This document shows, in pieces, positions 5,235 through 52,210 of a stretch of DNA of 64,000 nt. This DNA is from an uncultured Rickettsiales bacterium (lineage in GTDB: Bacteria > Pseudomonadota > Alphaproteobacteria > Rickettsiales > RI-342). Every line of letters starts with the position of its first letter. Positions within the stretch are counted from its first letter, which is position 1. The notes under the pieces are model-generated. The model saw only the letters and a program-made list of their open reading frames with translations, had not been told where the DNA came from and searched no databases. The stretch is from assembly GCA_964435165.1 (NCBI GenBank), contig CAYSXY010000004.1, forward strand, positions 14,686 to 78,685, in the 5' to 3' direction. The translations under genes were made by a program, and so were the position numbers.

Positions 5235-6059
5235 ATGCAGCGCTTCATCGTTATTCTCCTTATTGCCTGGATTAGTGCCTCTCCTTATCGAGTGAAAGCA
5301 GGCGCATGGGGTCAACCCACAGGTCAGACCGAGCTGATTACCAGCGCTTTCTTTTATCAAACCGAGGAATATGTCGCACCGGATGGTACGGTACAGCCAC
5401 AACCTACCTTCCGCAAATATAGCTTGTTTTCATATCTCGAGCATGGGTTGACGGAAGACTGGACGATTGGTGCCAATCTGGAATTGGCCCATGCCAGAGA
5501 GCGCCGCCAAAACGGCCAATCGCAACAAAATAGCGGTGTGGGTGTGATGGAATTATTCGGGCGATACCAATTGGCCAGGGAAGAGAACTGGGCCTTGTCG
5601 ATTCAGCCATTAGTGGCCCTGCCCAGCAGCTATGAGACGGATCCGGCGCCTGATATCGGCCATGATCAAACAGATCTTCAAGTCGGCATCCTGTTTGGCG
5701 GCACCTTTTCCCTGCTCGGTCGGCTGCATTATGTCGATACCGCACTTCATTACCGTCACCGGCTTTCCACTCCGTCTGACCAGCTGCGCGGGGAAGTGAC
5801 GCTTGGCCTGCGCATAACGGATGATTGGGAGTTACTCACCCAGCTCTTTCATATTCACAATCTTGGCGATGCAATTGCTGGCCCCCAAGGGGTGCGACTG
5901 ACCCCGGAAGAAGATTACCGCTTGACCAAACTGCAAATTTCCGGACTCTATCATATGACGGAAGATGTCGCGCTGCAATTGGGCGGCTTTGCGCATTTGC
6001 ATGCGCGCAATACCGGGGGTGATGGCGGCGGCATGGCGGCGCTGTGGCTCAACTGGTAG
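5235..6059 (+). CDS. Predicted outer-membrane beta-barrel protein (function unknown)
   Basis: Signal peptide (ILLIAWISASPYRVKA), alternating amphipathic strands and a C-terminal aromatic residue (LWLNW). Confidence 0.55.
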   Translation: MQRFIVILLIAWISASPYRVKAGAWGQPTGQTELITSAFFYQTEEYVAPDGTVQPQPTFRKYSLFSYLEHGLTEDWTIGANLELAHARERRQNGQSQQNSGVGVMELFGRYQLAREENWALSIQPLVALPSSYETDPAPDIGHDQTDLQVGILFGGTFSLLGRLHYVDTALHYRHRLSTPSDQLRGEVTLGLRITDDWELLTQLFHIHNLGDAIAGPQGVRLTPEEDYRLTKLQISGLYHMTEDVALQLGGFAHLHARNTGGDGGGMAALWLNW

Positions 6060-7934: not shown

Positions 7935-7980
7935 CCTCTGTTGAGGCATCATGTAAGGATGTTGCCTCAACAGAGGCTAT
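7931..7980 (+). terminator. Perfect 18-bp stem / 14-nt loop hairpin overlapping the GT2 stop codon
   Basis: atagcctctgttgaggca (7931-7948) pairs perfectly with tgcctcaacagaggctat (7963-7980). No U-tract follows, so intrinsic termination is uncertain. Confidence 0.45.
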
Positions 7981-8079
7981 AGCCATTCACATTAATTTTC
8001 ATACAATCTGAATGGCTATGAGGCCGCGACTGCTGCCCGCGCCATAGTTGGCGCGTAAGCCTTAGTGGCGTCTTAACGC

Positions 8080-8109
8080 CCCACTAATTTCTGTACAGAA
8101 ATTAGTGGG
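8080..8109. promoter_or_regulatory. Perfect 30-bp palindrome upstream of rpmJ (operator or leader hairpin)
   Basis: cccactaatttctgtacagaaattagtggg is self-complementary. An upstream ttagtggcg (8062-8070) can pair instead with cgccccactaa (8077-8087). Confidence 0.3.
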
Positions 8110-8204
8110 AAAAGCTATAAACGCCCGGCTTGACTTCTACAGCAAAAGCCATTATCAACCATCGCTCTGTTATTTTAATTAACGCGAATGACGCGAGATA
8201 AGCC

Positions 8205-28098: not shown

Positions 28099-28305
28099 AT
28101 CTTATCTTTCGCATTTCAATGGATTGAAATGCTATGTGCGTTCAGGCGCCACGCATGCTGCGCTCCCCCTTGGTCGCTAGTCGTCACTTCGTTCCTCCAC
28201 ATTGCCTAACCTTTGGACAGATTGCCTGTTGGATACAAAGCATACTCTATCCCGCGCACTCGTTTTGTCTATGGTAAAATGGGTGGAGGTAAAATGGGTA
28301 AGGAT

Positions 28306-29730: not shown

Positions 29731-30107
29731 TCATGGATTCTTCGGCTACGCAGCCACGCTTCTCGCCCAGGATGACGATATTGACGTCAGCTCTATCATT
29801 CCCTCCCCCGCAGGCGGGGGAGGGTCAGGGCGGGGGAATTATAGAGAAAAAGATGACCTGATTATTCTTCCCCCCTTCCCAACCTCCCCCCGCAAGCGGG
29901 GGGGGAATGGCATGGTGTCATGCTCCCGGCCTGTCATTGTGATTACAGTCTGGATTCGTCGGCTAAACCGGCGAATGACAACAATCTTTTTCACGCGTCA
30001 TCCTGAGCGGAGCGGCGATAGCCGTGTAGTCGAAGGATCTATTGCTTATCTGGCTTTTGCCACAAGGCGCCATGGATGTTTCGACTCGCGATGCTCGCGG
30101 GGCATGA
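29731..30107. repeat. Composite cluster 1 of dispersed intergenic repeats (REP/MITE-like)
   Basis: It contains:
- GC palindromes ccctcccccgcaggcgggggaggg (29801-29824) and ctccccccgcaagcgggggg (about 29884-29905).
- ggattcgtcggctaaaccggcgaatgacaa (29951-29980), 28/30 identical to 42028-42057.
- A palindromic element of about 112 nt at 29996-30107, homologous to 39423-39540. Confidence 0.85.
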
Positions 30108-30228
30108 CGTATTGTTCTCATGCACAGTAATGACAAATTTATTGGCCTCGCGCACAAGTAAAGTTGGCACAATCATTGCATCGCTTATTTCAGCATACAG
30201 ATGAGAAAAAACGACGTAAGGATGTGTC

Positions 30229-30633
30229 ATGGATTATGGCAATCTACAAATCATGGCGATGATGAAGGCGAAGATGGCCTATCACAGCAAGCGCCAGGAC
30301 GTGCTGGCACAAAATGTCGCCAACACGGACACGCCGGGTTATCGGCCAAAAGATTTGCCGCCGCTGACCTTCGACGACATGCTGGGCAAACAAAAACGCC
30401 TGAAAATGGTGCAAACCTCGCCGGAACATCTGGGTGGGGCACATACGCAAATCGCCGCCTTTTCGCCAGAAGTGATGCAGCAATATTATGAGAAAAAGCC
30501 GGTGAACAATGCCGTCACCGCCGAGCAGCAGATGATGATGATGAATGAAAATGCGTTGGAACTGCAAACCACCACACAACTTTATAATAAAACCGCCGGG
30601 CTGTTCCGCACCGCTATTGGCAACCGGCAATAA
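30229..30633 (+). CDS. flgB: Flagellar basal-body rod protein FlgB
   Basis: LAQNVANTDTPGYRPKDL rod N-terminal motif. It is the first gene of a flgB-flgC-fliE series. Confidence 0.88.
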   Translation: MDYGNLQIMAMMKAKMAYHSKRQDVLAQNVANTDTPGYRPKDLPPLTFDDMLGKQKRLKMVQTSPEHLGGAHTQIAAFSPEVMQQYYEKKPVNNAVTAEQQMMMMNENALELQTTTQLYNKTAGLFRTAIGNRQ

Positions 30634-30658
30634 GAGCAATTGATAAGGGGATAGCATT

Positions 30659-31072
30659 ATGGCTTCTGATCTGGTCAACTCACTGTTCATTGCCTCCGCC
30701 GGGATGGGAGCGCAATCGGAGCGGCTGAAAATCATCGCACAGAACATCGCCAATGCCGATAATGTGCCGCAATATCCTGAGGATCAGCCGTATCGACGCA
30801 AAGTGATTTCGTTCCGCAATGTGATGGATGAGCAACTAGGTGTGCCGACGGTTCAGGTCTATAAAATCGGCACGGATAAAGCACCTTATCGTTTGAAATA
30901 TGACCCGTTTCACCCTGCGGCTAATGTGCAGGGCTATGTGCAGTTGCCCAATGTCAATACCACGGTGGAAATGGCCGATATGCGTGAGGCGCAGCGCACC
31001 TATGAAGCCAATGTGAAAACGGTGGAGATCACCAAGTCGATGATTCAGAATACGTTAAGCCTGCTGCGGTAA
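30659..31072 (+). CDS. flgC: Flagellar basal-body rod protein FlgC
   Basis: ASAGMGAQSERLKIIAQNIANADN and C-terminal MREAQRTYEANVK. Confidence 0.92.
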   Translation: MASDLVNSLFIASAGMGAQSERLKIIAQNIANADNVPQYPEDQPYRRKVISFRNVMDEQLGVPTVQVYKIGTDKAPYRLKYDPFHPAANVQGYVQLPNVNTTVEMADMREAQRTYEANVKTVEITKSMIQNTLSLLR

Positions 31073-31102
31073 GATAGGGTTTAGTGGGAAGGAGGCATCA
31101 TC

Positions 31103-31513
31103 ATGGCCGATAACGTCTACAGCACTGCCATCCGCGCCTATGGTCAGGCAGCGCAGATGAACCGCAAAGGCGGCACACCAAACGAAGATAGCGTGACGAC
31201 AGGCCAGCAGGCGCGCATCAGCACGCCGCAAGGCCCGTCATTTGAAAGCCGGCTGGAGATGAGTCAGCCGTCAGAGGCGCCGATTACTACCGGTAAACCA
31301 AGCTTTCCTGAATTGCTTGATCATGCCGTTAACCGGGCACTTGATGTGAATTATAAGGGTGAAGAAACCAGCATCAACACGCTGGCCAAGCGCGCCGAAC
31401 TGCATGAAATGGTCACCGCCGTCAGCAATGCCGAGCTAACCCTCAACACCGTGGTTGCTGTACGCGACCGGGTGATTTCAGCCTATCAGGACATTATCAA
31501 AATGCCTATTTAA
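31103..31513 (+). CDS. fliE: Flagellar hook-basal body complex protein FliE (long N-terminus)
   Basis: C-terminal AVSNAELTLNTVVAVRDRVISAYQDIIKMPI is the FliE signature. Its position after flgC fits. Confidence 0.8.
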   Translation: MADNVYSTAIRAYGQAAQMNRKGGTPNEDSVTTGQQARISTPQGPSFESRLEMSQPSEAPITTGKPSFPELLDHAVNRALDVNYKGEETSINTLAKRAELHEMVTAVSNAELTLNTVVAVRDRVISAYQDIIKMPI

Positions 31514-31550
31514 TCATTGCCTTACGCGGCTTTTTTTATACAGTAGCCTT

Positions 31551-31817
31551 ATGAATACGTTAGAGATTATCGAGATTGGCCGCGAGGGCATTTACGTCCT
31601 TCTGAAGATGAGTCTGCCATTGATGTTGGTGGCGATGGGGGTGGGACTTGCCATCTCACTTTTTCAGGCCTTGACGCAAATTCAGGAAATGACGCTGGCC
31701 TTTGTGCCGAAAATTATCGCCGTCTTTTTCTCCATGCTTATTCTCATGCCTTATCTGGCTGAAGAAATGACTGTGTTTCATGAAAGTATGACTAAGCGCA
31801 TTGCCAATATTGAGTAA
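31551..31817 (+). CDS. fliQ: Flagellar export apparatus protein FliQ
   Basis: 88 aa with two TM helices and the conserved ISLFQALTQIQEMTLAFVPKI. Confidence 0.92.
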   Translation: MNTLEIIEIGREGIYVLLKMSLPLMLVAMGVGLAISLFQALTQIQEMTLAFVPKIIAVFFSMLILMPYLAEEMTVFHESMTKRIANIE

Positions 31818-31852
31818 ATCGATCATGCTTAGCTGCGCATAATAAGCGTCGC

Positions 31853-32629
31853 GTGATGATTTACAGCCCTATCGAAATTTTTCTGGTTCGCGAAATTTTC
31901 GCCATCCTGCTCGTCTTCTGCCGAGTGGGGACAGCGATCATGTTGATTCCCGGCATTGGCGACACGTTTGTACCCATGCGTATTCGGTTGATTCTGGCCA
32001 TAATGATCAGCTATGTGCTGGCGCAGACGATTCACGATCTGCTGCCGCCGCCCCCAGGCGATGCGCTCACCTTGTTTTTATTGCTAGGAACGGAAATTCT
32101 GTTTGGGGTGTTTATGGGAACCATCACGCGCATCCTGATCTCCACCATGCACACGGCAGGCATGGTCATGGCATCGCAATCCAGCCTGGCGGCCGCGATG
32201 CTATTTGACCCGGCCCAGGGCGGGCAAAGCTCCACGATCGGTATTTTTCTCACCATCATGGCGATTACGATCATGTTCAGCCTTGATCTGCACTATCTGA
32301 TGCTTAGTGCATTTGTTGATAGCTATGGTCTGCTGCCTGCCGGCGATGCGCCAATTACGCATGATATGGCCGTGTATATTGCTCATATTGTGATGCGCTC
32401 TTTTGTCATTGGCTTCCAATTAGGTGCACCGGTTGTAGCAATGTCGCTACTTATTTATCTCGGCTCTGGTGTGCTCTCGCGCCTGATGCCTCAAATGCAG
32501 GTGTTTTTTGTCATCATCCCGGCACAGATTATGCTTAGTTTCTTTGTTATTATGGTCGTATTAACGGCTGTGATGCTACGCTATACTCAATATGTGGAAG
32601 AGGTGATGGGGAATTTCCTCACCCCTTAA
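31853..32629 (+). CDS. fliR: Flagellar export apparatus protein FliR
   Basis: 258-aa polytopic membrane protein between fliQ and flhB. Confidence 0.85.
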   Translation: MMIYSPIEIFLVREIFAILLVFCRVGTAIMLIPGIGDTFVPMRIRLILAIMISYVLAQTIHDLLPPPPGDALTLFLLLGTEILFGVFMGTITRILISTMHTAGMVMASQSSLAAAMLFDPAQGGQSSTIGIFLTIMAITIMFSLDLHYLMLSAFVDSYGLLPAGDAPITHDMAVYIAHIVMRSFVIGFQLGAPVVAMSLLIYLGSGVLSRLMPQMQVFFVIIPAQIMLSFFVIMVVLTAVMLRYTQYVEEVMGNFLTP

Positions 32630-32650
32630 GAGAGAAAGAGGCCGCACCCG

Positions 32651-33775
32651 ATGGCTGATGGTGGCCAGGACGAATCACAAAAAACCGAAGAACCGACGCA
32701 TAAACGGCTGCAGGATGCGCTGAAACGGGGTCAGGTGGTCAACTCGCGTGAAGTGACCAGCTTTTTGATGCTGCTGGTGCTCACCGCCACGCTGGCATGG
32801 ATTCTCCCTTATGCCATGGGCCTGACCCATGAATGGTTTGGCCGCTTTATTACCACCCCGCATGATTTCACTCTTGATGTCGGCAATCTGCATCAACTAA
32901 TGGCTGATATATTCTTAGATATGCTGCTGATTTTTTTGTTGATTGTCAGCGCAGGCTTTATTGCGGCGCTGGTCGGCAGTTTTATCCAGCACGGGCTGGT
33001 GATTTCCGGTGAGCCGATGAAGCCGAAAGCGGAGAAAATCTCTCCTCTTAAGGGCCTGAAGCGCATGTTTTCACTCAAATCCGTGATGGAATTTGTCAAA
33101 GGTGTCTTCAAAATCACGATCATCGGCACCGTTGCCTATATCGCGGCTGCGCCTTATCTGGGATTTCTCAAGCAACTTCCCAATTATGATATTGCCGATT
33201 TGATGGTCTATCTCGACCATGTGGCGCTGCGCATGATGATTGGCGTGTGCATTGTCATGGCCTTTATCGCCGGGCTGGACTACCTCTATCAGCGCTATGA
33301 ATATCTCAAAAGCCTGCGCATGTCACATCAGGAAATAAAGGACGAATTCAAACAGATGGAGGGTGACCCTCAAGTCAAGGCGAAGATTCGTCAAATTCGG
33401 ATGGAACGGGCACAGAACCGGATGATGGCTAATGTGCCCGAAGCGGATGTCGTCATTACCAACCCGACGCATTATGCGGTTGCCCTTGCCTATCAAACCG
33501 GTGCGATGGGTGCGCCAAAAGTGGTTGCCAAAGGGCAAGATCATATCGCTATGGTCATCCGCGAGATTGCCACCGAGCATGACATACCGATCGTCGAGAA
33601 CCCACCCCTGGCCCGCGGCATTTTCAATGCCGTCGAGTTAGAGGATGAAATCCCCACCGCCTATTATCAGGCAGTGGCGGAAATTATCAGCTATGTCTAT
33701 CGCCTGAAGGGCAAATTGCCGGGCCCGGCAGGCACACCGCCGCCGGTGACGGATTTGCCAGAACTTGATGGGTAA
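32651..33775 (+). CDS. flhB: Flagellar export switch protein FlhB
   Basis: SQKTEEPTHKRLQDALKRGQV N-terminus, NPTH autocleavage site (VVITNPTHYAVAL) and PPLARGIF. Confidence 0.95.
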   Translation: MADGGQDESQKTEEPTHKRLQDALKRGQVVNSREVTSFLMLLVLTATLAWILPYAMGLTHEWFGRFITTPHDFTLDVGNLHQLMADIFLDMLLIFLLIVSAGFIAALVGSFIQHGLVISGEPMKPKAEKISPLKGLKRMFSLKSVMEFVKGVFKITIIGTVAYIAAAPYLGFLKQLPNYDIADLMVYLDHVALRMMIGVCIVMAFIAGLDYLYQRYEYLKSLRMSHQEIKDEFKQMEGDPQVKAKIRQIRMERAQNRMMANVPEADVVITNPTHYAVALAYQTGAMGAPKVVAKGQDHIAMVIREIATEHDIPIVENPPLARGIFNAVELEDEIPTAYYQAVAEIISYVYRLKGKLPGPAGTPPPVTDLPELDG

Positions 33776-33969
33776 AGATGGCGCCACCTTGATGCCCGCC
33801 CGTTTTGGTAAATCTTTTTTTACATATCCCCCGTAAGAGCATAGATGGGGTGATCTGCCATCACCTCACACAGTGTGTTACTCTATGACAAACGGGGCTC
33901 ATCCTGCATGGCGTTTTTCTCGACTGACTTCACCAGTATCACTCTTCGCTTGAGAAGGAGCATTCTCCT

Positions 33970-36579
33970 ATGATTATGCGCCGTTATCTGGACATTAGTG
34001 AAGTCGACACCAATGATTTCAAGGTGCGACAGCATAAACCGCTGCTATCAGTCGTACTTGGTGCATATTTGCTGGCATTTGTGATTATTATCGGCACCGC
34101 ATCGATCAGCAACGAGATTGGCGGCATGCCTGTCTTCACCATCGTCACGCTGGTAATGCTCGGCTTTTCTGCCTGGGTCACCTATTTCAATACGCAGCGA
34201 AGTCGCGACCTGGTGACAGCCACGGAATTTCAAAACGCACTCTTTTCATCCATTGCCCACTTGCACAGCAGTTTTATTGTGATTGTGCGTAATACGGGCG
34301 GGATCATGTATTACAGCAGTAATTACCCGGCCATGTTCAGCGGCACACGTCGCCGTGGATTGACCACCATCGATGCAATTTTTGAGACAGACGGCATCAG
34401 TGCCGAAGATGCCGCACGTATTCGCAGCGCACTGGCAGACGGCAAACCGGAACAGTTGATTTGTGAAGTCAAAGATGTGGATGGCAACAGCCAGCCCATT
34501 CGTCTGACCATTCAGCCTATTCCCCGCCCCTCCGGGTTTTTTGTGATTAGCGGCTCCCCATTACGGCGGCGTGTCAGTGACAATGCGCCCAGCCAGGGGC
34601 GCGACGGTCGCGGCGGCGAAAGCGGTTTTTTCCGCGATGGTCTTAATGCCGTCCCTATTGGTAGCTGCCTATTCGATAAGGACGGAGATCCTTCCTATAT
34701 CCACCCGGATATCGAACTATGGCTTGGCTATCAACGCTATGAAATTCAACGCCAGCATTTGACACTGGATGCGCTGATATCCGATGAAACCCCGGGCGAT
34801 CTGAAATCAACATTCCTGACAGATAAACTGTTTGATGGTCATGTGTATTTTGCCCATAAATCCGGGCGCTCGCTGCGTGCGACAGTGACCAAGCGGGCTG
34901 TTGTTGACGAGAAAGCGGATTTCAACGGCACGATTTTAATCGTTCAACCATTCGATCAATCCTTTGCCCACCTCTCCAGCTTTAGTGCCAGTACCGGCGG
35001 TGCTTATGCTGGCACGCCCCCCAACCAGGAATCCATCGATGATGCGTCGACAACCGGCCTCAGCCGTGTGATGCAGGAAGCTCCCATCGGTATTGTGGTC
35101 ATCGACAAGGACGGAAACATTATTCAGAATAATCGCTTTTTCAACCAGATGGTAGAATCCGTCACCGCTAACCCGCGCAATCTGATGCGGTTGATTAAAA
35201 ACGACTTTCATGACGATCTCAAACGCCGGATTCAGTCATGTATGACGCAGGGTTTTTCCGAAGACGAGCCGCTTTCGGTTGAAATTGCGACCTCCGATCA
35301 TATGGCCGCCTCGATTTACGTGACCTGTCATAACCAGGCAGAGGGTCATGTCGCCGCTTATCTCATCGAAACGACCGAACAAAAGTCGTTGGAAATGAAA
35401 TATGCACATTCACAGAAAATGCAGGCTGTGGGCCAGCTTGCCGGAGGCATCGCGCATGATTTCAATAATTTGCTGACCGCAATGATCGGGTTTTGCGATT
35501 TGCTGCTGATGCGTCATCCGGCTGGCGATCAATCCTTCGCCGATATTATGCAAATCAAGCAGAATGCCAACCGCGCCGCCAACCTTGTGCGGCAGTTGCT
35601 GGCCTTCTCGCGCCGTCAGACCCTGCAACCAACGCTACTCGATATCACCGATGTGCTGGCTGAATTGTCGAATCTCATCCGTCGCCTGATTGGAGAGAAT
35701 ATCGAACTCAACATGGTGCATGGGCGTGATTTAGGCATGATCAAGGTGGATCAGGGTCAGCTTGAGCAGGTGATTATCAACCTGGCCGTTAATGCGCGTG
35801 ATGCCATGGCTGATGGCGGTGAATTGACGATTCGCTCGGCAAATATTGTTGTCAATAATCAGCATCCTTTAGATGCTGCCCTTATTTCACCCGGTGACGA
35901 TGACCCGGTCGCGGCCGGGGATTATGTGATGGTCGAAGTGATCGATAATGGCTGCGGTATCGCCCGTGAGAATGTCAGCAAGATTTTTGAGCCATTTTTC
36001 TCGACCAAGGAAGTTGGCTCCGGCACCGGCCTTGGCCTGGCGACCGTCTATGGGATTATCAAGCAAACCGGCGGATATATTCTCGTCGACAGCAAAGAAA
36101 ATGAGGGGACACGCTTTGTGTTGCTCTTCACCTTGCACCAGCCAAGTGAAAGCCAGCAAAAAGAGGCCACGCAAATTCAGGGCGAACCGCCTGCCTCCAA
36201 AGACTTGACCGGACGCGGCACTATCTTACTGGTGGAAGATGAAACGCCGGTGCGTTCTTTCAGTGCCCGGGCGCTACGTAATAAAGGCTACACCGTTATT
36301 GAAGCTGACTGCGCCGAAGCTGCCCTGGAGCTTATGGAGACACAGGGCAGTGAGATTGAGGTGATTATCAGCGATGTGATTATGCCCGGTATGGACGGGC
36401 CAAGCATGGTGCAACAAATCTGGGAGAGCCGCCCGGATATCAAGGTGATTTTTATCTCCGGCTATGCCGAAGATGCGCTGGTGAAAATGGAAAACAGCAC
36501 CCGCCCCTATGACTTTTTGCCGAAGCCATTTACGCTCAAGCAACTGGCGCAGAAGGTGAAAGAGGTAGTGAGTAAATAG
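33970..36579 (+). CDS. cckA: Hybrid sensor histidine kinase/response regulator, CckA-like
   Basis: Two N-terminal TM helices and PAS-like regions. H-box [22 protein letters not shown], HATPase DNGCGI...[22 protein letters not shown] and C-terminal REC (ILLVEDE...[12 protein letters not shown]...LPKPF). There is close recalled similarity to Caulobacter CckA around the DHp/CA domains. Confidence 0.7.
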
Positions 36580-36596
36580 GGTTATATGTATACCCA

Positions 36597-36868
36597 CGTG
36601 CTCGCCTACTGACTCGCACATGGGGTGAAGCTCAAGGCTGCTCGGAGTTGTTTATGTTCGCCTCCGATGATGCTTTGCATCCCCATGAGGCTAGCTCAGG
36701 GCTGCTGACCTCGTAGAAATTCATTCATTATGCCATCTGAATGAATGGATACATATCTTCTACGCCGCAATAAGCGGCGACGCGCTTGCCTTACGGATTC
36801 ATATCCACCAATCTATTTATATAAGTACATGCGCCAATTCCCGACTCGTGATGCTCGCGGTGCATGAC
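36597..36868. repeat. Composite cluster 2 of dispersed intergenic repeats
   Basis: cgtgctcgcctactgactcgcacatggggtgaagctcaaggctgctcgg (36597-36645) is homologous to 52165-52210. A second half-unit catgaggctagctcagggctgct is present. ttcccgactcgtgatgctcgcggtgcatgac (36838-36868) is a half copy of the element of about 112 nt. Confidence 0.8.
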
Positions 36869-36959
36869 AATCCATCGCATATCTCCACTTGCGAAGCGGG
36901 TGGAAGCGTGTAGGTTGTTTATATATATTTAACGTTCTTACTAGGGGATCAGGAACACC

Positions 36960-38021
36960 ATGGATAAGCAAAAAGCGCTGGAAACCGCACTCAGCCAGAT
37001 TGAACGCACCTTCGGCAAAGGCTCGGTGATGAAGCTTGGGCAGCAGCAGGCAATTGATGTTGACGTGGTTCCCACCGGCTCCATTGGGCTGGATATTGCG
37101 CTGGGCGTGGGCGGCTTGCCACGTGGTCGTATTATCGAGATTTTTGGGCCGGAAAGCTCCGGTAAAACCACCCTTACCCTGCATGCGGTTGCAGAGGCGC
37201 AGAAAAAGGGTGGCACCTGTGCCTTTGTTGATGCCGAGCATGCGCTGGACCCGGCCTATGCCGCCAAGCTGGGGGTGAACATTGATGATCTCATTATTTC
37301 CCAGCCTGATACGGGTGAGCAGGCGTTGGAAATTGCCGACACACTGGTGCGCTCCGGCGCCATCGACGTGGTGGTGATTGACTCCGTAGCCGCGCTGGTG
37401 CCCAAAGCCGAGTTGGAAGGTGATATGGGCGATGCACATGTGGGCCTGCAGGCCCGCCTGATGAGCCAGGCATTGCGCAAGCTCACCGCTTCGATCAACC
37501 GTTCCAAATGTATGGTGATTTTCATCAACCAGATTCGCATGAAAATCGGTGTGATGTTCGGTAGCCCGGAGACCACCACCGGTGGTAACGCGTTGAAATT
37601 CTACTCATCCGTGCGGATTGATATTCGCCGTATCGGTTCCATTAAAGATAAGGATGAGGTAGTCGGCAACCAGACGCGCTGTAAAATCGTGAAAAATAAG
37701 GTCGCTCCGCCATTTCGCACCGTCGAGTTTGACATTATGTATGGCGAAGGCATTTCCTATATGGGTGAGCTGATTGACCTGGGCGTCAAGGCCGGGATTG
37801 TTGAAAAATCCGGTTCATGGTTCTCGTACGACTCCACTCGCATTGGTCAGGGCCGTGAAAATGCCAAGCAATTCCTGCGCGACAATCCGGAGATGGCTGA
37901 TCAGATTTCCAATGCTATCCGCAAGGAAGCCGGGCTGCTGGGTGAAGCCTTGAAGGATCACAATATTGCGAATGACGGTGCAGACGCGCCAGAAGATGCA
38001 CTGGAAACCGAAGCTGCCTGA
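36960..38021 (+). CDS. recA: Recombinase RecA
   Basis: Walker [11 protein letters not shown], and L1/L2 loops and the overall sequence are unmistakable. Confidence 0.98.
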
Positions 38022-38029
38022 TGTAAGGA

Positions 38030-39325
38030 TTGACGCGCACCCGTTCTTCAACACCCCATGCCTCCGACTCTCCGGCACAATGGCTGTATCTTGACCTGAA
38101 CAGCTATTTTGCCAGTGTTGAGCAACAGCTGGTGCCTGAGTTGCGTGGCAAGCCCGTGGCCGTGGTGCCGGTGATGACCGATAGCACCTGCGCTATTGCC
38201 GCGAGTTATGAGGCCAAAGCTTACGGCGTGAAAACCGGCACGATGATTTATGAGGCCAAGCGACGATGCCCGGGGCTTATCTGCGTGCAGGCGCGACATG
38301 ATGCGTATGTTGACTTTCATCATAAGATCTTAGCCTCGATCGAGCATCACTATCCGATTAGCCAGATTCTATCGATTGACGAGGTAGCGTGCAAATTGGA
38401 TGCCCACCGCCAAGTGCCCGAGCGAGCCATTGCGCTGGCCAAGGCTATGAAAGCCGGCATCACGCGTGATATTGGCCCCTATGTGCGCTGCTCCATTGGC
38501 ATCGCGCCCAATCGCTTTCTGGCCAAAGTCGCCAGCAATCTGCAAAAGCCGGATGGCCTGACCCTGCTCGGCATGGATGAGTTGCCGGAGCGATTGCTGC
38601 CCCTTGCCCTCACCGACTTACCGGGCATTGGCCGGGGCATGAAACGACGGCTGGAACGTTGTGGCATCACCACCATGGCGCAGCTATGGGCCTTGCCCCC
38701 CAAACAGATGCGCGCCATTTGGGGCGGTGTGGGTGGTGAGCGCTTTTGGCGGATGTTGCACGGGCTGGAAGTGGATGACATTCCCACTCGCCGCCGCACG
38801 ATTGGCCACAGCCACGTGCTGTCACCGGAATGGCGGCCGCAACCACAGGCGCGATTGGTCACCCGTCGCTTGCTAAGTAAAACAGCCAGCCGTCTGCGGC
38901 GCATGGAATATCATGCCACCAAAATGGAGCTGTCGCTACGCGTTGAGCACGGGCCACGGCTTCATGCCATACGCTCTTTTCATCGCGCTTGCGACACGCA
39001 TAGCCTGCTGCATGTGGTGGAAAGTATGTGGGAGGAACTGACGCACCCGCTGGAATCCAGCATTCGCATTAAAAAGGCCAGTGTCACCTTACACGGACTC
39101 ATTGCCAACCGGCAGGTGCAGCCAGATTTGTTCGATGACCCCTCGACACAAGAAGATGGTTCAGCTCAGCGCTCCGAAGCACTTTCCCACGCGATTGATG
39201 CCCTCAACAGCAAATTTGGCCGCGACACCGTGACCATCGGCAGCCTGCCGAAACAGCTGAATAGCTTCTCCGGCACCAAAATTGCCTTCACCCGTATTCC
39301 GGATAAGCAGGAATTTCATGAGTGA
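38030..39325 (+). CDS. Y-family (UmuC/DinB-like) translesion DNA polymerase
   Basis: WLYLDLNSYFASVEQ (first catalytic Asp) and SIDEVACKLD (the catalytic D-E pair). TTG start 9 nt after the recA stop. Confidence 0.8.
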   Translation: MTRTRSSTPHASDSPAQWLYLDLNSYFASVEQQLVPELRGKPVAVVPVMTDSTCAIAASYEAKAYGVKTGTMIYEAKRRCPGLICVQARHDAYVDFHHKILASIEHHYPISQILSIDEVACKLDAHRQVPERAIALAKAMKAGITRDIGPYVRCSIGIAPNRFLAKVASNLQKPDGLTLLGMDELPERLLPLALTDLPGIGRGMKRRLERCGITTMAQLWALPPKQMRAIWGGVGGERFWRMLHGLEVDDIPTRRRTIGHSHVLSPEWRPQPQARLVTRRLLSKTASRLRRMEYHATKMELSLRVEHGPRLHAIRSFHRACDTHSLLHVVESMWEELTHPLESSIRIKKASVTLHGLIANRQVQPDLFDDPSTQEDGSAQRSEALSHAIDALNSKFGRDTVTIGSLPKQLNSFSGTKIAFTRIPDKQEFHE

Positions 39326-39344
39326 TGCTGCGCTATGTTTATTT

Positions 39345-39690
39345 GCCTCCCGCCTCGCCTTCTGACTCGGCGTTAAGGCGCAGCTCAGGGCTGCCGGCCT
39401 CGTTGACTTATCTTAATCACATGTCATCCCGAGCGTAGAGCCTATGGCTCGGAGTCGAAGGATCTATTTCGTCACACTCTTTGGCATCTAGCTATGAGGC
39501 ACCGTGGATGTTTCGACTCGCGATGCTCGCTTAACATGACATAAAAACCTTATTATACCGCTGCGCTCAGGATAATGTATTCACTTACTTGTCATCCCAG
39601 AATGCGGGCAAGCAGGCGAGCATATCTGGGATCCATCCCTCACAAGGACGAAACCCACCAGTAGCCGGGCAAGCAGGCCCGGCGTGTCAT
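39345..39690. repeat. Composite cluster 3 of dispersed intergenic repeats
   Basis: Diverged copy of the ctgactcg...gctcagggctgc unit (about 39351-39400). The palindromic element at 39423-39540 is homologous to 29996-30107. The element of about 100 nt at 39591-39690 is homologous to 41802-41958. Confidence 0.85.
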
Positions 39691-39806
39691 TGCAATTGCC
39701 ATCCGGACATTTGCCATCTGGGTTGCCCGCCGACAATGACACATCTGCCAGATTAGTATATAGCTGCTTTTTCAGAACACTCACTCCTCTAGACAAAGGA
39801 TTTTTC

Positions 39807-40121
39807 ATGCAGTTTCTTGTGATTGCCAAAGACGGTGCCGATGCTGACGCGCTCAAGCGCCGCCTGGCCGCCCGGGATGAACATTTGCAGCATACGGATG
39901 AGATGATCGCCAATGGCAATGCGCATATGGCGGCAGCGCTGCTCGATGATGACGGGCAGATGAACGGCTCGGTGATGATTGTGGAGTTTGAGTCGGAAGA
40001 TGCCTTTCGCAGCTGGCTGGACAAAGAGCCGTATGTCACCGGCAAAGTGTGGGATAAAATTTCCGTTACGCCCTGCAAGATTGGCCCCAGCTTTCTTGAT
40101 GCATCGCGCAAGGCGGCATAA
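39807..40121 (+). CDS. YciI-family protein
   Basis: MQFLVIAKDG...RLAARDEHLQH...GSVMIVEFESEDAFRSWLDKEPY shows the typical YciI pattern. The track ORF is extended upstream into a repeat, so the start is set at the ATG at 39807. Confidence 0.75.
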   Translation: MQFLVIAKDGADADALKRRLAARDEHLQHTDEMIANGNAHMAAALLDDDGQMNGSVMIVEFESEDAFRSWLDKEPYVTGKVWDKISVTPCKIGPSFLDASRKAA

Positions 40122-40257
40122 CTGGCGAGTGGGACGCTAACGCGGCCTGTGTCATCTTTCCTTTACATTTTCGTGCTATATTCCACCACTTAGGGAATCT
40201 GCCACCAATCGTATGAATGAACGGCAGTAGCGGTTTAACCACATTGTGAACCGAGGC

Positions 40258-41076
40258 ATGAGTGTTATGGCACAACAAAAACAAGTTGCGATTATATCCA
40301 ACCCGACCATTGAAGCGGTCTGTTATCAACTGTTCAAATTTCCAACCGAGGCTGAGGCCGTTGAACGGCTGGAGACCATCAAAGATTATTTCATTGTCTC
40401 TAAAGAGCAGGATAATGAGACGGAGAACCTCTCCGTTAAAATATGGATCAAAGGATTTATGGTCACCGAAGGCGAAGAAAAGCTGGGTTATCTCGGTAAT
40501 TTCGCCCTCATGCAATATGCGCTGACCGAAGACGGCAAATACACGCTTTATGCCGAAAAGCTGGAAGTTCCACTACGCACCCATCCACAAAAACGCTATC
40601 CCAAGCATAAACACCCCAATTGGGGTCACCCGGTGCTGCGTAAAATCAAAAAGGGGCATGTTTATCCTACCATTGAGGACGCCCAGGCCGACTTGCAGCG
40701 TCTGCATGAAGAATTCCCGCAAGTGTCCATCCCCACCAATGCCAAGATGTATATCATCATCTACAGCAAGGATGGGCCGGAAGACAAGCGACCGGTAAAG
40801 AAGTTTATTCTTGAAATTCAATTGGTTGATGGCGGCGGCTTCACTATTGAGATTAAAGAGAACACCTATCGCAAAGAGGATAACCCGAAAAAAAGCGAAG
40901 CGACAGTTGAGCAAAGCGAGGAAGATAAAGAAGCGCAGGGCTACTTTGCCTCCATGGTTGATCTCAAACGCGCCAAGAAAAACAAGCGCAACATTCTGGA
41001 TGAGGTGGCCGAAGCCCGCAAGGCAGAGGAAGAAGATGGCGAGGACGCCCCTCCAGCGGAGTCTTCAGAGCAGTAG
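40258..41076 (+). CDS. Hypothetical protein with a Lys/Glu-rich C-terminal tail
   Basis: Long ORF with no recognisable motif. The start is ambiguous (40246 GTG, 40258 or 40267 ATG). Confidence 0.5.
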   Translation: MSVMAQQKQVAIISNPTIEAVCYQLFKFPTEAEAVERLETIKDYFIVSKEQDNETENLSVKIWIKGFMVTEGEEKLGYLGNFALMQYALTEDGKYTLYAEKLEVPLRTHPQKRYPKHKHPNWGHPVLRKIKKGHVYPTIEDAQADLQRLHEEFPQVSIPTNAKMYIIIYSKDGPEDKRPVKKFILEIQLVDGGGFTIEIKENTYRKEDNPKKSEATVEQSEEDKEAQGYFASMVDLKRAKKNKRNILDEVAEARKAEEEDGEDAPPAESSEQ

Positions 41077-41231
41077 GTCGCTCCAACCAGCCCTTGATAA
41101 ATAACGCTTTTCAGCGCCCTGTCATGATGGCGTCATGATTTTTCTGTATCATTGGCAATGAGTCTTTGGTTTTGTGTATGCAAACCATGAGACGCTTAGT
41201 CCAAATAGGTTGAAAAGTTTATATATGCTCA

Positions 41232-41642
41232 ATGTCTGGTAAAATTGTACTTGGACCCGAATTCTGGCAAGCGATGCAACTCGAGAATGCCTTGAAGCGG
41301 ATGCACGATATCGTGCTGAACCATCCGCTCAAGGACGGTAAGGCCGTGTTGGAGTTCCGGCGCGGCGAGGACAATCAAGAGTCAGTGCGTTTGCTGAACG
41401 TGATTCTCGGTTGCACGGGCTTATCGATCACGTTGGATGCTATTATGGCATTCCAGCCCGGGGAGAGCATCACGGTTCCCGTGAACAGCTCCCCTTTGAT
41501 CGATCAGTGGCCCGTGCCGCTGGAATTCGATGATAGCCTGATTTTCGCCGTAGCAGCAGAAGAGAACGAAACACTCGTTCTCGAATTCTACGGCGACGAA
41601 GAATCGGTGACCGTTATCGCCTACGGCGTAACAGTCAGTTAA
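41232..41642 (+). CDS. Hypothetical 136-aa protein
   Basis: ORF only; no recognisable motif. Confidence 0.4.
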   Translation: MSGKIVLGPEFWQAMQLENALKRMHDIVLNHPLKDGKAVLEFRRGEDNQESVRLLNVILGCTGLSITLDAIMAFQPGESITVPVNSSPLIDQWPVPLEFDDSLIFAVAAEENETLVLEFYGDEESVTVIAYGVTVS

Positions 41643-41653
41643 CCTAATTCTGG

Positions 41654-41695
41654 GAGGTGGTGTGAACGTTTTGTTCATGCCTCCTCATCGTTTTT
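41654..41695 (+). terminator. Possible intrinsic terminator after the 136-aa ORF
   Basis: Imperfect hairpin gaggtggtgtgaac / gttcatgcctc, followed within 7 nt by TTTTT. Confidence 0.35.
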
Positions 41696-41744
41696 CTCTC
41701 TACTTATTCAGCCATCACTTGTTGCTATCATGATTGCTCGCTAA

Positions 41745-42123
41745 TGGATCCTTGCCTGTGCGGCTGCGCCGCTGCGCTCGGGATGACGATTTATTCTTGG
41801 TGTCATCCCGGAATGCGAGTTAACAGCCCTGAGCCGCGCCTCATGGAATTGTGAATACAATTCCGGAGGCAATCAAACAATCATGAGCATATCCGGGAAT
41901 CCATCCCTCACCACGACGAAACCCATCAGTAGCCGGGCAAGCAGGCCCGGCGTGTCATCATACCTGATATCTGGATTCCGGCATTCGCCGGAATGACAAT
42001 ATTTCTATCATTTTGCGCGATAAGGTTGGATTCGCCGGTTAAACCGGCGAATGACAATAACAACGTTCGCCGGAATGGCATTGAGGTAGACATGGTCGAC
42101 TACGCAGCAGCGCTTGTCTGGCC
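41745..42123. repeat. Composite cluster 4 of dispersed intergenic repeats, including a nested insertion
   Basis: - The element at 41802-41958 matches 39591-39690 but is interrupted after gaatgcgag by about 66 nt carrying cagccctgagccgcgcctcatgg plus the palindrome ggaattgtgaatacaattcc.
- ggattcgccggttaaaccggcgaatgacaa lies at 42028-42057.
- tcgactacgcagcagcgcttgtctggcc (42096-42123) resembles 29741-29770. Confidence 0.85.
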
Positions 42124-42178: not shown

Positions 42179-44989
42179 ATGACTACGACCGTCAATGACA
42201 TTCGCCGCAACTTCCTCTCCTATTTTGAGTGCAAAGACCACCGAGTGCAGCCATCCAGCCCCTTGGTGCCGCAGAATGACCCGACGTTGATGTTCACCAA
42301 TGCCGGGATGGTGCCGTTTAAGCATATCTTCACCGGCGCAGAGACACCGCCTGCCCCACGCGCCACCACCAGCCAGAAATGCGTGCGCGCCGGGGGCAAG
42401 CATAATGATCTGGACAATGTCGGTTACACGGCGCGGCATCACACATTTTTTGAGATGCTCGGCAATTTCTCTTTCGGTGATTATTTTAAGGAAAGCGCCA
42501 TTGCCTTTGCCTGGGAATTGCTGACCAAGGATTTTGGCCTGCCGCAGGACAAGCTGTTTGTTACTGTCTATCACACCGATGACGAAGCCTTTGAGCTGTG
42601 GCGCAAGATTAGCCGCTTGCCGGAGAGCAAAATTCTGCGGGTGCCGACCAATGATAATTTCTGGAGCATGGGCGATACTGGCCCGTGCGGGCCATGTTCG
42701 GAAGTGTTTTATGACCATGGCGAAGGCATCGAAGGCAAGTGGGCGCTGGATAAAGACGGGAGCGACCTGTTTGAAGACCGCTTTATTGAGATATGGAATC
42801 TCGTCTTCATGCAATATGAGCAGGTGGATAGCGAGACGCGTATTGACCTGCCCAAGCCATCCATCGACACCGGCATGGGGCTGGAGCGCATCGCCGCTGT
42901 GCTGCAGGGGGTGCATGATAATTATGACACGGATTTGTTCGTCAGCCTGATTGATGCGGCTGAGGACGCGGTGAAAGCAACAGTGACGCCGACAAATCAT
43001 GCCTCCTTCAAAGTAATTGCCGACCATTTGCGCTCCTCCTGCTTTTTGATGGCCGACGGCGTCACGCCCTCCAATGAAGGGCGCGGCTATGTGCTGCGAC
43101 GGATTATGCGCCGGGCCATGCGCCACGCCCATATTCTGGGTAGCAAAGACCCGCTGATGCACCGGCTGGTGCCGTCGCTGATTCATGAGATGGGTGCCGC
43201 CTACCCTGAACTGGGCCGGGCCGAGGCGCTGATGACCGAGACATTGAAAAATGAAGAGACGCGCTTTCGCGAGACATTGGCGCGGGGGTTGCATTTGCTG
43301 GAAGAAGAAACCGGCACGCTAGCCTCCGGCAAAGCACTGCCGGGTGATGTCGCCTTCAAACTATATGACACCTATGGATTTCCAGTTGATCTGACCGCTG
43401 ATATTCTGCGAGGCCAAGGGCGAGAGGTGGATATGGCAGGCTTTGATGCCGCCATGGCCGAGCAGAAAGCCCGCGCCCGCGCCGCCTGGAGTGGGTCGGG
43501 GGGCAAATTTGTTGAGCAACTCTGGTACGAAATATCTAACCAGCATGGAAAGACTAATTTTACTGGTTATGAAGAATTGGAAACCATAGGTAAAATTCTT
43601 ACTTTTGGTGACCCAAGAGATTTTCGTGCAGAGACTGATGAGGAACAAGTTGTTGGGCAATTTACAGCCGCAGGAGGCGTTCGTCTCGAAGCAGGTGAAC
43701 CCATATTGATTATAACTGATAGAACCCCATTTTATGGCGAATCAGGCGGACAGATTGGCGATCAAGGTGTGATCTCAGTGCGCGACGAGAATGGAGCCGT
43801 TATAAAGATTACAGATACCCAGAAACCAATTGAAGACATTATTGTTCACTACGGCACGGTAGTACAATCCGGGTTAATTTATACTAATGTAGAAGTTACG
43901 CTTTCTGTTGAGGTGTCACGACGCAATCGCCTGCGAGCGAATCATTCAGCCACACACCTGCTGCATAAGGCACTGCGCGATGTGCTGGGCGAGCATGTGA
44001 CGCAGCAAGGCTCATTGGTGGCAGAAGATAAGCTGCGCTTTGACATCTCGCACGCCAAGCCGCTAACCGCAGAAAAAATCCAGCAGGTAGAACGCAGAGT
44101 GAATCATATGATCTGGTCGAATAGCGAGGTGAACACACGCATCAGCACGCCGGAAGAGGCGCAGAAAGCGGGCGCTCTGGCGTTGTTTGGCGAGAAATAT
44201 GGCGATGAAGTGCGCGTGGTGAGCATGGGTGTTCAAGGCAATGGAGACAACAAAGAAGGAGGCCAGCAGGCCGATCCAGCCTTGAGCTCCGCCTCATGTG
44301 CGAGTCAGCAGACGAGCACGGAGGCATATTCAATAGAACTTTGCGGTGGTACGCATGTGGCGCGCACGGGCGATATTGGCCTGTTCAAAATTACCGAGCA
44401 ATCCGCCGTGGCCGCTGGTGTGCGACGGCTCGAAGCGGTGACGGGCGATGCCGCCTTTATCCACCTCACCGGGCAGGAAGCACGACTCAGGCAAGCTGCC
44501 GATGCACTCAAAACCTCCCCTGCCGAACTGCCAGAGCGGGTCCGTGCACTGGTGGCTGAGCGCAAGCAGTTGGAACGCCAGCTGGCGGATGTGAAAAAGC
44601 AATTGGCACTGGGCGGCAGTCAACAGGCTGCCAATGGAGCAGACAATGCGGTGGAGACCATCGGCAACACAAAATTTATGGGCAAAATTGTCGCGGACAT
44701 TCCGGCAAAGGAACTGAAAGGGATGGCAGACAGCCTGAAGAAGCAACTCGGCTCCGGCGTTGTCGCGCTGCTTGCAACTGATTCAGACAAAGGGAAGCTA
44801 TCGATTGTGGTTGGGGTGACCGATGATTTGACTGGCAGCACCAGTGCGGTGGAGTTAGTCAAGGCTGCCTCGGAGGCGGCAGGTGGCAAGGGCGGCGGCG
44901 GCCGGCCAGACATGGCTCAGGCCGGCAGCCCGGATGCCGGAAAAGCCGCCGATGCTTTGGCTGCGGTAAGACAACGATTGGCTTCTTAA
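42179..44989 (+). CDS. alaS: Alanine--tRNA ligase
   Basis: Class II motifs, FSFGDYFK, editing-domain HSATHLL and ELCGGTHV, and a C-terminal DHHA1-like region. At 936 aa it is longer than usual (see findings). Confidence 0.97.
44256..44320 (-). repeat. Copy of the dispersed ctgactcgcaca...gctcaaggctg repeat lying in frame inside alaS
   Basis: The reverse complement of 44277-44320 is cgtgctcgtctgctgactcgcacatgaggcggagctcaaggctg. The intergenic copy at 52165-52210 reads cgtgctcgtcctgctgactcgcacattgagcgcagctcaaggctgc. By eye about 40/46 positions match. Confidence 0.75.
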
Positions 44990-52141: not shown

Positions 52142-52164
52142 TATCTCAACTTTTTATTTGCTCC

Positions 52165-52210
52165 CGTGCTCGTCCTGCTGACTCGCACATTGAGCGCAGC
52201 TCAAGGCTGC
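52165..52210 (+). repeat. Solitary copy (cluster 5) of the ctgactcgcaca...gctcaaggctgc repeat
   Basis: cgtgctcgtcctgctgactcgcacattgagcgcagctcaaggctgc is homologous to 36597-36645 and, in inverse orientation, to 44277-44320. Confidence 0.8.

Follow-up and report, generated by a model that had tools for sequence, protein, structure and literature searches.

Intergenic repeat arrays of an uncultured Rickettsiales bacterium resemble NIMEs and probably contain hairpins of the NTS/SRM class

The systems closest to the repeats described here are known from Neisseria. The dRS3 repeat is part of an oriented 28-nt hairpin, the NTS (CGTCATTCCCGCGMAVGCGGGAATCYRG), and variants found across phyla have been named Ssn-related motifs, SRM, with the published motif HGTCWYN(0-2)YYVSBRHN(0-5)WNVSBRGN(0-2)RNCYNB (Chenal et al. 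2025, PMC11893778). SsnA, a single-domain GIY-YIG nuclease of 94 aa, binds the NTS only as single-stranded DNA (ssDNA) and cuts a few nt upstream; the three nt preceding the palindrome on its 5' side are important for cutting, the C directly after it for binding, and cutting tolerates changes of loop identity and even loop extensions (PMC11893778). Recognition of SRM by Ssn is specific for DNA, ssn genes are usually flanked by SRM, and in both Neisseria and Wolbachia an Ssn of about 94 aa binds hairpins of the SRM frame as ssDNA and nicks them a few nt upstream (PMC11893778). In NIMEs, dRS3 inverted repeats flank RS elements of 50-150 bp and form arrays, which in 2007 had not been seen outside Neisseria (PMC1797815). 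Here, a stretch of 64,000 nt (the window) from an uncultured Rickettsiales bacterium (GenBank assembly GCA_964435165.1, contig CAYSXY010000004.1, positions 14,686 to 78,685) was analysed, in which several families of intergenic repeats probably form NIME-like arrays of NTS/SRM-class hairpins.

In a preliminary description of the window, four types of repeat unit had been listed at five intergenic loci, which were regarded as mosaics of shared sub-elements and called REP/MITE-like. The sub-elements were used in BLAST searches of the whole assembly, a draft of 2.32 Mb in 111 contigs with a completeness of 97.8%, a repeat search was performed inside 29-43 kb, and copies were counted by iterated nhmmer. 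Genes were taken from a home-made call (2045 genes, 89% coding). In our numbering the contig of the window is C4, window positions 29733..29777 corresponding to C4:44418-44462. BLAST and nhmmer recovered all four unit types where they had been placed, and the mosaic character of the five loci was borne out. The units are designated U1 (unit 1, with the arms C-left and C-right), A (unit 2), B (unit 3), and D (unit 4); an additional palindrome is designated E. In the genome, A is present in 18 copies per half (17 complete), B in 13, C-left in 20, C-right in 10, D in 19, and E in five. Together with the canonical hairpins defined below, these modules occupy 55 loci on 33 contigs, 18 of the loci with at least three elements, and intergenic positions account for 100 of the 103 module copies. 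The families are therefore not confined to the window. Module order and orientation vary widely among the 55 loci and the flanking genes differ as well; the elements are dispersed, as had been proposed, and a segmental duplication is rejected.

A common signature became apparent at the flanks of hairpins. All perfect hairpins with a stem of at least 8 bp and a loop of 3-10 nt were listed, and flanks were read out twice per hairpin. At the 5' flank of the 248 intergenic hairpins (496 read-outs), TGTC was found 35 times and CGTC 11 times, with no such enrichment at coding hairpins, and a C directly follows every GTC-A.. hairpin on the 3' side. The flank-enriched hairpins read (T/C)GTC-A(T/C)NCCNGC-GNNN-GCNGGN(A/G)T-C(C/T)... 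The hexamer ATGACA is weakly enriched by itself (376 seen, 303 expected). With the pattern GTCAYNCCNGCGNNNGCNGGNRTC, which leaves three base pairs free, 28 copies were detected in the genome, 27 of them intergenic, and none in the reversed control. These copies are referred to as canonical SRMs. Each of the three free pairs, which the selection pattern did not force, is complementary in 28 of 28 copies, and all four pair types occur. The covariation score of the 28-copy alignment is 0.425 versus 0.086 in shuffles (reached by 0 of 500) and collapses when partner columns are slid against each other; paired cells amount to 100%, and double-change cells to 34 versus 10.3 in shuffles (again 0 of 500). 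The published SRM regular expression gave 27 genome matches, 16 of them intergenic, against 7.2 +/- 3.2 in first-order Markov simulations, and a covariance model (CM R1) built from the canonical copies gave 48. The Neisseria NTS itself is present in two copies at up to one mismatch, exact dRS3 (ATTCCCN8GGGAAT) in three. A distance of no more than 400 nt to a module of the preliminary description was found for 13 of the 28 canonical SRMs, versus 6.6% expected, copies in one cluster not being independent.

The frame common to the SRM-class modules, 5'-(T/C)GTC-A(T/C)..stem-loop..(A/G)T-C-3', is visible in B (TGTC-ATTCGCCGG..CCGGCGAAT-CCAG), in the first hairpin of A (TGTC-ATYCCRGA..31-nt loop..TCYGGRAT-CCAT), in C-left (CGTC-ATCCT-GAGCG..inner hairpin..GTCGA-AGGAT-C), and in C-right (GTC-ATGTT-..-AACAT-CCA), whose closing stem carries compensatory changes relative to C-left. 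The 17 complete copies of A share a sharp 5' edge at TGTCAT. DNA folding backs the hairpins of A, B, D, E, and the canonical SRM with z scores from -3.1 to -6.05.

No mobilising gene is present in the window, as had been noted before, and a tblastn search (E up to 10) detected no relics of GIY-YIG genes in its repeat clusters. The likely partner, an Ssn-type GIY-YIG nuclease, is encoded elsewhere in the genome, at four loci (PF01541 with 40.7-71 bits). The gene at C74:4377-4682 (101 aa) is flanked by TGTC-ATACCGGC on one side and by an inverted TGTC-ATCCCGGC hairpin on the other, and that at C69:7372-7680 (98 aa) lies between ATTCCTGC hairpins. The gene at C33:5009-5245, with a tandem copy at 5575-5811 (78 aa, C-terminus probably shortened), has on either side C-left-type modules with 84% identity to the U1 arm. 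At C32:10694-10992, a frameshifted pseudogene lies among hairpins with 9-bp stems and long loops. Two of the four loci look intact. The paralogues are 41-48% identical and have conserved the catalytic residues, i.e. the tyrosines of GIY and YIG, the arginine, and the glutamate. By eye, hairpins were found on both sides of every Ssn-like gene; in the automated search, all of them had an SRM-like element within 150 nt, compared to 2.7% of all genes. Since homologues of ComEC and DprA are encoded in the genome, incoming ssDNA is a conceivable substrate, and one may speculate that it is used as in Neisseria.

Two further observations concern GIY-YIG genes. At C33:4960-6091, a stretch of 566 nt is duplicated in tandem. 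It covers the small GIY-YIG gene, a C-left hairpin, and the 3' end of a gene resembling homogentisate dioxygenase, and the duplication may be either genuine or produced by the assembly. At C71:7155-7406, a second small GIY-YIG type of 83 aa adjoins a tRNA gene and lacks SRM hairpins in its vicinity; genes like it are also present in the relatives G003 and G027.

For comparison, 40 genomes of the same order were searched; in the collection used, the genus of the genome studied here is represented by this genome only. A and U1 were not found at the DNA level in these relatives. D is present in one sister genus (eight copies, about 83% identical) and partially in three or four other families. Ssn-like genes were detected in 21 of the 40 genomes and the canonical 24-mer in 17, in up to 91 copies, while the reversed control was zero throughout. 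At least two canonical SRMs are present in 13 of 18 relatives with a strong ssn match versus 3 of 22 without; because the genomes are kin, no formal test is attached to these proportions. A unit of about 375 nt, SRM+ - ssn - SRM-, recurs in seven genera with a different stem sequence in each, and in three of the seven the geometry of B (9-bp stem, 5-nt loop) flanks ssn. A regular-expression pass over open reading frames at the ssn loci of the relatives recovered only about half of them. Gene-less inverted SRM pairs with a spacing of 57-98 nt are common in several relatives, and U1 has the same architecture. In G039, nearly all of the 91 canonical SRMs are arranged in plus/minus inverted pairs 84-98 nt apart (e.g. 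C1:48406-48527), a MITE-like family of about 45 copies with SRM ends; G009 also has 91 SRMs.

Orthologous junctions provide evidence for insertion. The gene order cckA-recA-(YCII)-alaS is shared across the family, but what the spacers contain differs. The cckA-recA spacer comprises 380 nt here, with two D copies and half a U1. In three sister genera it is only about 110-230 nt long, and in one of them a different long-loop SRM occupies it. The recA-YCII spacer contains an inverted NTS pair in G002 and none in G003. In this pair (locus L046, G002:C186, 4980-5070), the first hairpin, CGTCATTCCCGCGAAAGCGGGAATCCAGG, is the exact Neisseria NTS consensus and the inverted partner an SRM variant with a ATCCCAGC stem; the pair fills nearly the whole spacer from the recA stop to the next start codon. 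The tatC-serS junction is empty, with 5-12 nt, in two sister genera (G001 and G003), holds a gene-less inverted hairpin pair of about 85 nt in G002, and a 390-nt SRM-ssn-SRM unit in the genome studied here. These filled and empty orthologous sites, together with the D copy within alaS described below, are evidence of insertion.

From these results it appears probable that the loci are NIME-like arrays of NTS/SRM-class hairpins mixed with D and E, that they cluster and are shuffled through nicking of ssDNA hairpins and repair, and that gene-less pairs are non-autonomous counterparts of ssn cassettes. The signature, its covariation, the distribution in the genome, the linkage between hairpins and ssn genes, and the filled and empty sites were observed directly, whereas we infer that these Ssn proteins cut these hairpins and that cutting drives their spread. 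Hairpins would extrude when the DNA becomes single-stranded, during replication, uptake, or conjugation, and the cognate Ssn would nick beside the extruded hairpin. Repair or recombination at the nicks would copy, duplicate, and shuffle hairpins and intervening sequence, which would explain the observed accumulation of modules side by side, with order and orientation changing from locus to locus. Pairs of the U1 type, SRM+ - spacer - SRM-, have the architecture of SRM+ - ssn - SRM- and may behave as its non-autonomous counterparts.

The likeness to the NTS/SRM-SsnA system (PMC11893778) extends to the order of CGTC or TGTC, an AT.. palindrome, and C(Y)(R)(G), to the nearly exclusive intergenic location with covarying stems and hairpins on both sides of small GIY-YIG genes, and to a small genome in a host that looks host-associated. 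The present system differs in that four diverged paralogues, each with its own hairpin type, occur in one 2.3-Mb genome, and in that most units of the five loci are missed by the regular expression, owing to stems of 9-10 bp (B), loops of 31-95 nt (A), or internal loops (C-left and C-right). With NIMEs (PMC1797815), the arrays share hairpins of 20-30 nt separated by repeat segments of about 20-150 nt in varying number and order, and arrays that differ between related genomes. They differ from NIMEs in the alphaproteobacterial host, in having variant hairpins with only three exact dRS3, and in being short: three or more elements are reached at the 18 loci mentioned above, and the largest array is about 2.7 kb. 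This array, at C28:5050-7780, is nearly free of open reading frames and contains four A, several C-left, B, E, and four canonical SRMs.

A number of findings weigh against this interpretation. We know of no experiment that shows Ssn spreading repeats, and the role demonstrated for Ssn in Neisseria is the restriction of transforming ssDNA (PMC11893778). In the whole window, the published regular expression matches only once, at 41971-41998; B, the first hairpin of A, and the arms of U1 all fail it. With the canonical CM, E values of only 0.097 (through the flanks and the outer stem) and 0.043 were obtained for the first and second B copy in the window, respectively, and 0.06 (genome-wide) for the first hairpin of A at 39587-39637; C-right was not significant, with E 0.7 at 36846-36872 and 7.4 at 39503-39544. 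The frame is absent from D, E, and the second hairpin of A. Since these modules fail the regular expression and score poorly with the CM, we infer the SRM status of the A, B, and C modules from shared flanks, geometry, and linkage, and B, the first hairpin of A, and the arms of U1 would be variants of the SRM frame with longer stems or long loops. The best match of the Ssn-like proteins in the PDB is UPF0213 BH0048 (E 3.6e-5), and NCBIfam returned only a sub-threshold match to GIY-YIG intron endonucleases. Finally, G003 has 56 canonical SRMs and no strong ssn match, only weak matches to another GIY-YIG subtype. In this species either the repeats outlived the nuclease or the gene is unassembled. 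G003 also holds eight copies of D.

A stronger version, which we regard as possible but less probable, treats Ssn units as true mobile elements. The SRM+ - ssn - SRM- unit of about 375 nt would be autonomous, whereas U1, an 83-nt family, and the roughly 45 pairs of G039 would be non-autonomous; each paralogue would have its own hairpin dialect, and D would land in the loops of SRM and also enter coding sequences in frame.

D, of about 75 nt, has a covarying hairpin of its own (fold z -3.65) and is a separate, insertable hairpin family. The first hairpin of A has a loop of 31 nt that corresponds to the D core in reverse complement, and in the long form of A this hairpin holds about 58-66 nt of extra sequence, its loop containing a near-complete D variant in which the distal stem is swapped for GGAATTGTgaatACAATTCC. 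The preliminary description had rightly taken this interruption of the second unit 2 copy as insertion of one element into another. Since long copies number at least five (C4, C5, C17, C21, and C28; 77-83% identical over 160-211 nt) and make up a family of their own, the nesting appears to go back to one old event followed by spread. Insertion into the loop is plausible because loop extensions do not prevent cutting by Ssn (PMC11893778). Within alaS, a D copy lies in frame in the tRNA_SAD domain (44256..44329, minus strand), outside the span covered by the preliminary description. It coincides with an insertion of 23-26 aa that is missing from AlaS of two sister genera (G001 and G002), and Pfam tRNA_SAD spans AlaS residues 678-752 versus a profile of 44 positions, so that the extra residues are located there. 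D within an essential gene as well as between genes is reminiscent of Rickettsia palindromic elements; D differs from them in its length of about 75 nt and its frequent position just past stop codons, no relation in sequence is evident, and the units other than D are essentially confined to intergenic sites. D and E also occur within other genes, D at C55:3188-3239 in a gene of 1281 aa and E at C15:37316-37400 in one of 406 aa. Both gene-internal D copies are antisense.

It is unlikely that only a few canonical hairpins are Ssn sites and that A, U1, D, and E are unrelated repeats in permissive intergenic spots, shuffled by ordinary recombination, homologous or illegitimate, and by slippage without a dedicated enzyme. 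Such a view would account for A, C, D, and E failing or barely passing the SRM models, for the frequent tandem duplications (a 122-nt period on C72, a 57-nt period with five D copies on C5, and those on C69 and C33), and for modules sharing sub-segments such as the loop of A and the D core. It does not account for the GTC..C frame and the sharp TGTCAT edge, which are conserved across families otherwise unrelated in sequence, for C-left flanking an ssn gene, or for co-location with canonical SRMs at about seven times the expectation.

Decidedly unlikely is maintenance of the repeats for a role at the 3' ends of RNAs, in mRNA stability or processing or in ribosome stalling near stops, although D comes closest to it. 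According to our own reading of the position table, 8 of the 19 D copies start 5-17 nt past a stop codon in sense orientation, the D hairpin covaries and folds well, and another genus has conserved D at about 83%. In E. coli, REPs less than 15 nt from stop codons attenuate translation. The A, B, and C modules, however, show no bias in orientation to flanking genes or towards positions between convergent genes; D alone is biased, towards stop codons. No T-runs or terminator-like sites were detected at any module in the intrinsic-terminator scan, and the Rfam scan produced only a spurious sub-threshold miRNA match on the E palindrome. The recognition of SRM by Ssn specifically as DNA (PMC11893778) also speaks against it. 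A terminator or processing function, which had been suggested for checking by RNA sequencing, thus finds no backing in consensus scans or Rfam; for D, its position possibly reflects an RNA-level effect at stop codons.

That the repeats are classical MITEs which a DDE or IS110-type transposase moves in trans is very improbable. Units of 80-155 nt with inverted-repeat architecture would fit, and a draft assembly could have lost a multi-copy insertion sequence (IS). Yet the edges of A, U1, and B show no target-site duplications, genes for rve, DDE_Tnp_1, IS110, TnpB, and likewise Y1_Tnp (PF01797) are missing from the assembly, and no IS was found among multi-copy repeats of more than 400 nt. Long repeats examined as a possible parent IS were rejected, being RTX-like and other paralogous protein repeats. 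Correia elements (CREE) and other bacterial MITEs resemble the present units in size, in being bounded by inverted repeats, and in having long and short forms, but here there is neither duplication of TA or another target nor a parent IS, and each end is a hairpin in its own right. The MITE part of the original label is therefore not upheld, nor is the REP part. REP/BIME-RAYT systems of E. coli, Pseudomonas, and Stenotrophomonas share with these arrays short palindromes with a conserved 5' tetranucleotide in mosaic clusters and a nuclease gene of single-copy type flanked by its own repeats, and the analogy between Ssn and REP/RAYT has been drawn by Chenal et al. (PMC11893778); they differ in that the flank here is GTC instead of GTAG, that there is no Y1/HUH gene, and that the partner is a GIY-YIG protein with no demonstrated transposition. 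Mobilisation of REP/BIME by a RAYT (Y1) transposase is hardly credible despite the short extragenic palindromes in mosaic clusters, as PF01797 is unmatched in a genome 97.8% complete and the conserved flank is (T/C)GTC, not GTAG.

Within the window, the gene context given before (cckA, Y-polymerase, alaS, flgB) agrees with Pfam. The first locus, upstream of flgB, contains a C-left module at 29733..29777 on the minus strand, an SRM-like long-loop hairpin (GTCATCCYGAGCG..GTCGAAGGATC; nhmmer E 3e-8). It is followed by E at 29797..29909, a palindrome of about 105 nt consisting of two inverted CCCTCCCCCGC..GCGGGGGAGGG hairpins without the SRM frame (nhmmer matches on both strands; fold z -4.25; about five genome copies). 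The first B copy at 29949..29983 (minus strand) reads TGTC-ATTCGYCGG..CCGGCGAAT-CCAG and is SRM-like with a stem of 9-10 bp. Copy 1 of U1 at 29996..30108 (plus strand) consists of C-left (+), a spacer, and C-right (-), an inverted pair of long-loop SRM-like hairpins (fold z -1.99).

At the second locus, after the gene for a CckA-like kinase and upstream of recA, a D copy at 36591..36640 (plus strand; nhmmer E 4e-12) begins 12 nt past the kinase stop codon. A second, diverged D-like copy follows at 36655..36704 (plus strand), matched by the nhmmer model 'Ains' on the minus strand at C4:51340-51389 (E 4e-8) and 86% identical to C2:33705-33786. The half copy of U1 at 36842..36868 (plus strand; nhmmer E 9e-5) is the C-right arm only and is 93% identical to 30082-30108.

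The third locus contains D at 39342..39393 (plus strand), 17 nt past the stop codon of the Y-family polymerase gene, and copy 2 of U1 at 39423..39540 (plus strand), the inner stem of which is unlike that of copy 1 and still pairs (GAGCC/GGCTC versus CGGC/GCCG). The two U1 copies are 73% identical over 135 nt (E 5e-11), and more copies are located on C17 (three), C90, and C94. Unit 1 had been described as palindromic with hairpin potential; its copies and half copy are as reported, while fold-back of the whole unit is modest, with z about -1.8 to -2.0. The short form of A at 39590..39686 (plus strand; fold z -3.1) reads TGTC-ATCCCAGA..TCTGGGAT-CCAT with the 31-nt loop and has a second hairpin, GCCGGGC-aagcag-GCCCGGC.

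At the fourth locus, upstream of alaS, C-left at 41744..41788 (minus strand; nhmmer E 2e-7) stands back to back with the long form of A at 41801..41954 (plus strand; fold z -3.5), which is 93% identical to the short form over 74 nt. This C-left(-)/A(+) junction recurs at 6 of the 17 A copies. Inside the loop of the first hairpin lies the D variant, D', at 41824..41873 (minus strand; nhmmer D match E 1e-7), which includes the hairpin with 8-bp stem and 4-nt loop. ggaattgtgaatacaattcc, previously called a perfect palindrome, is a perfect 8-bp inverted repeat, but with its 4-nt loop it is not a strict one. A canonical SRM/NTS-type hairpin, TGTC ATTCCGGC gaat GCCGGAAT CCAG, at 41970..42001 (minus strand) matches the regular expression and the CM (45.8 bits, E 1.6e-9). 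The second B copy follows at 42025..42059 (minus strand; fold z -6.05); positions 42028-42057 are identical to 29951-29980 in 28 of 30 residues, as stated before. At the fifth locus, D is located at 52157..52209 (plus strand; nhmmer E 1e-13), between the genes of a PQ-loop protein (minus strand) and an Hsp20 protein (plus strand). Unit 4 is D, at three of the window sites and in alaS.

Other repeats were noticed in the window. Positions 7976-8122 hold a structured repeat of about 145 nt with about 23 copies, 89-100% identical, on many contigs; it lacks the GTC..C frame and appears much younger than the A, B, U1, D, and E families. Two more small intergenic families, at 28103-28199 and 724-783, have three and five other copies, respectively, with 82-89% identity and are unrelated to U1, A, B, and D. 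Between recA and alaS, at 38030-41642, the genome has genes additional to those of sister genera, the Y-family polymerase gene and two open reading frames without Pfam match, which are bracketed by repeat arrays.

A system of this kind was already published in 2025, and the present one is not new in kind. Modestly new are NIME-like arrays in an alphaproteobacterium, variants with long loops or long stems that the published motif misses, several diverged pairs of paralogue and hairpin in one small genome, and a junction with empty, miniature, and gene-bearing states. New specificities of Ssn proteins and hairpins would be of practical value as tools for cutting ssDNA. For this poorly sampled alphaproteobacterial lineage, the vague label 'REP/MITE-like' is replaced by a specific, testable pairing of hairpin and nuclease, and its genomes offer natural material for the question left open by the 2025 Ssn paper, how SRM repeats spread.

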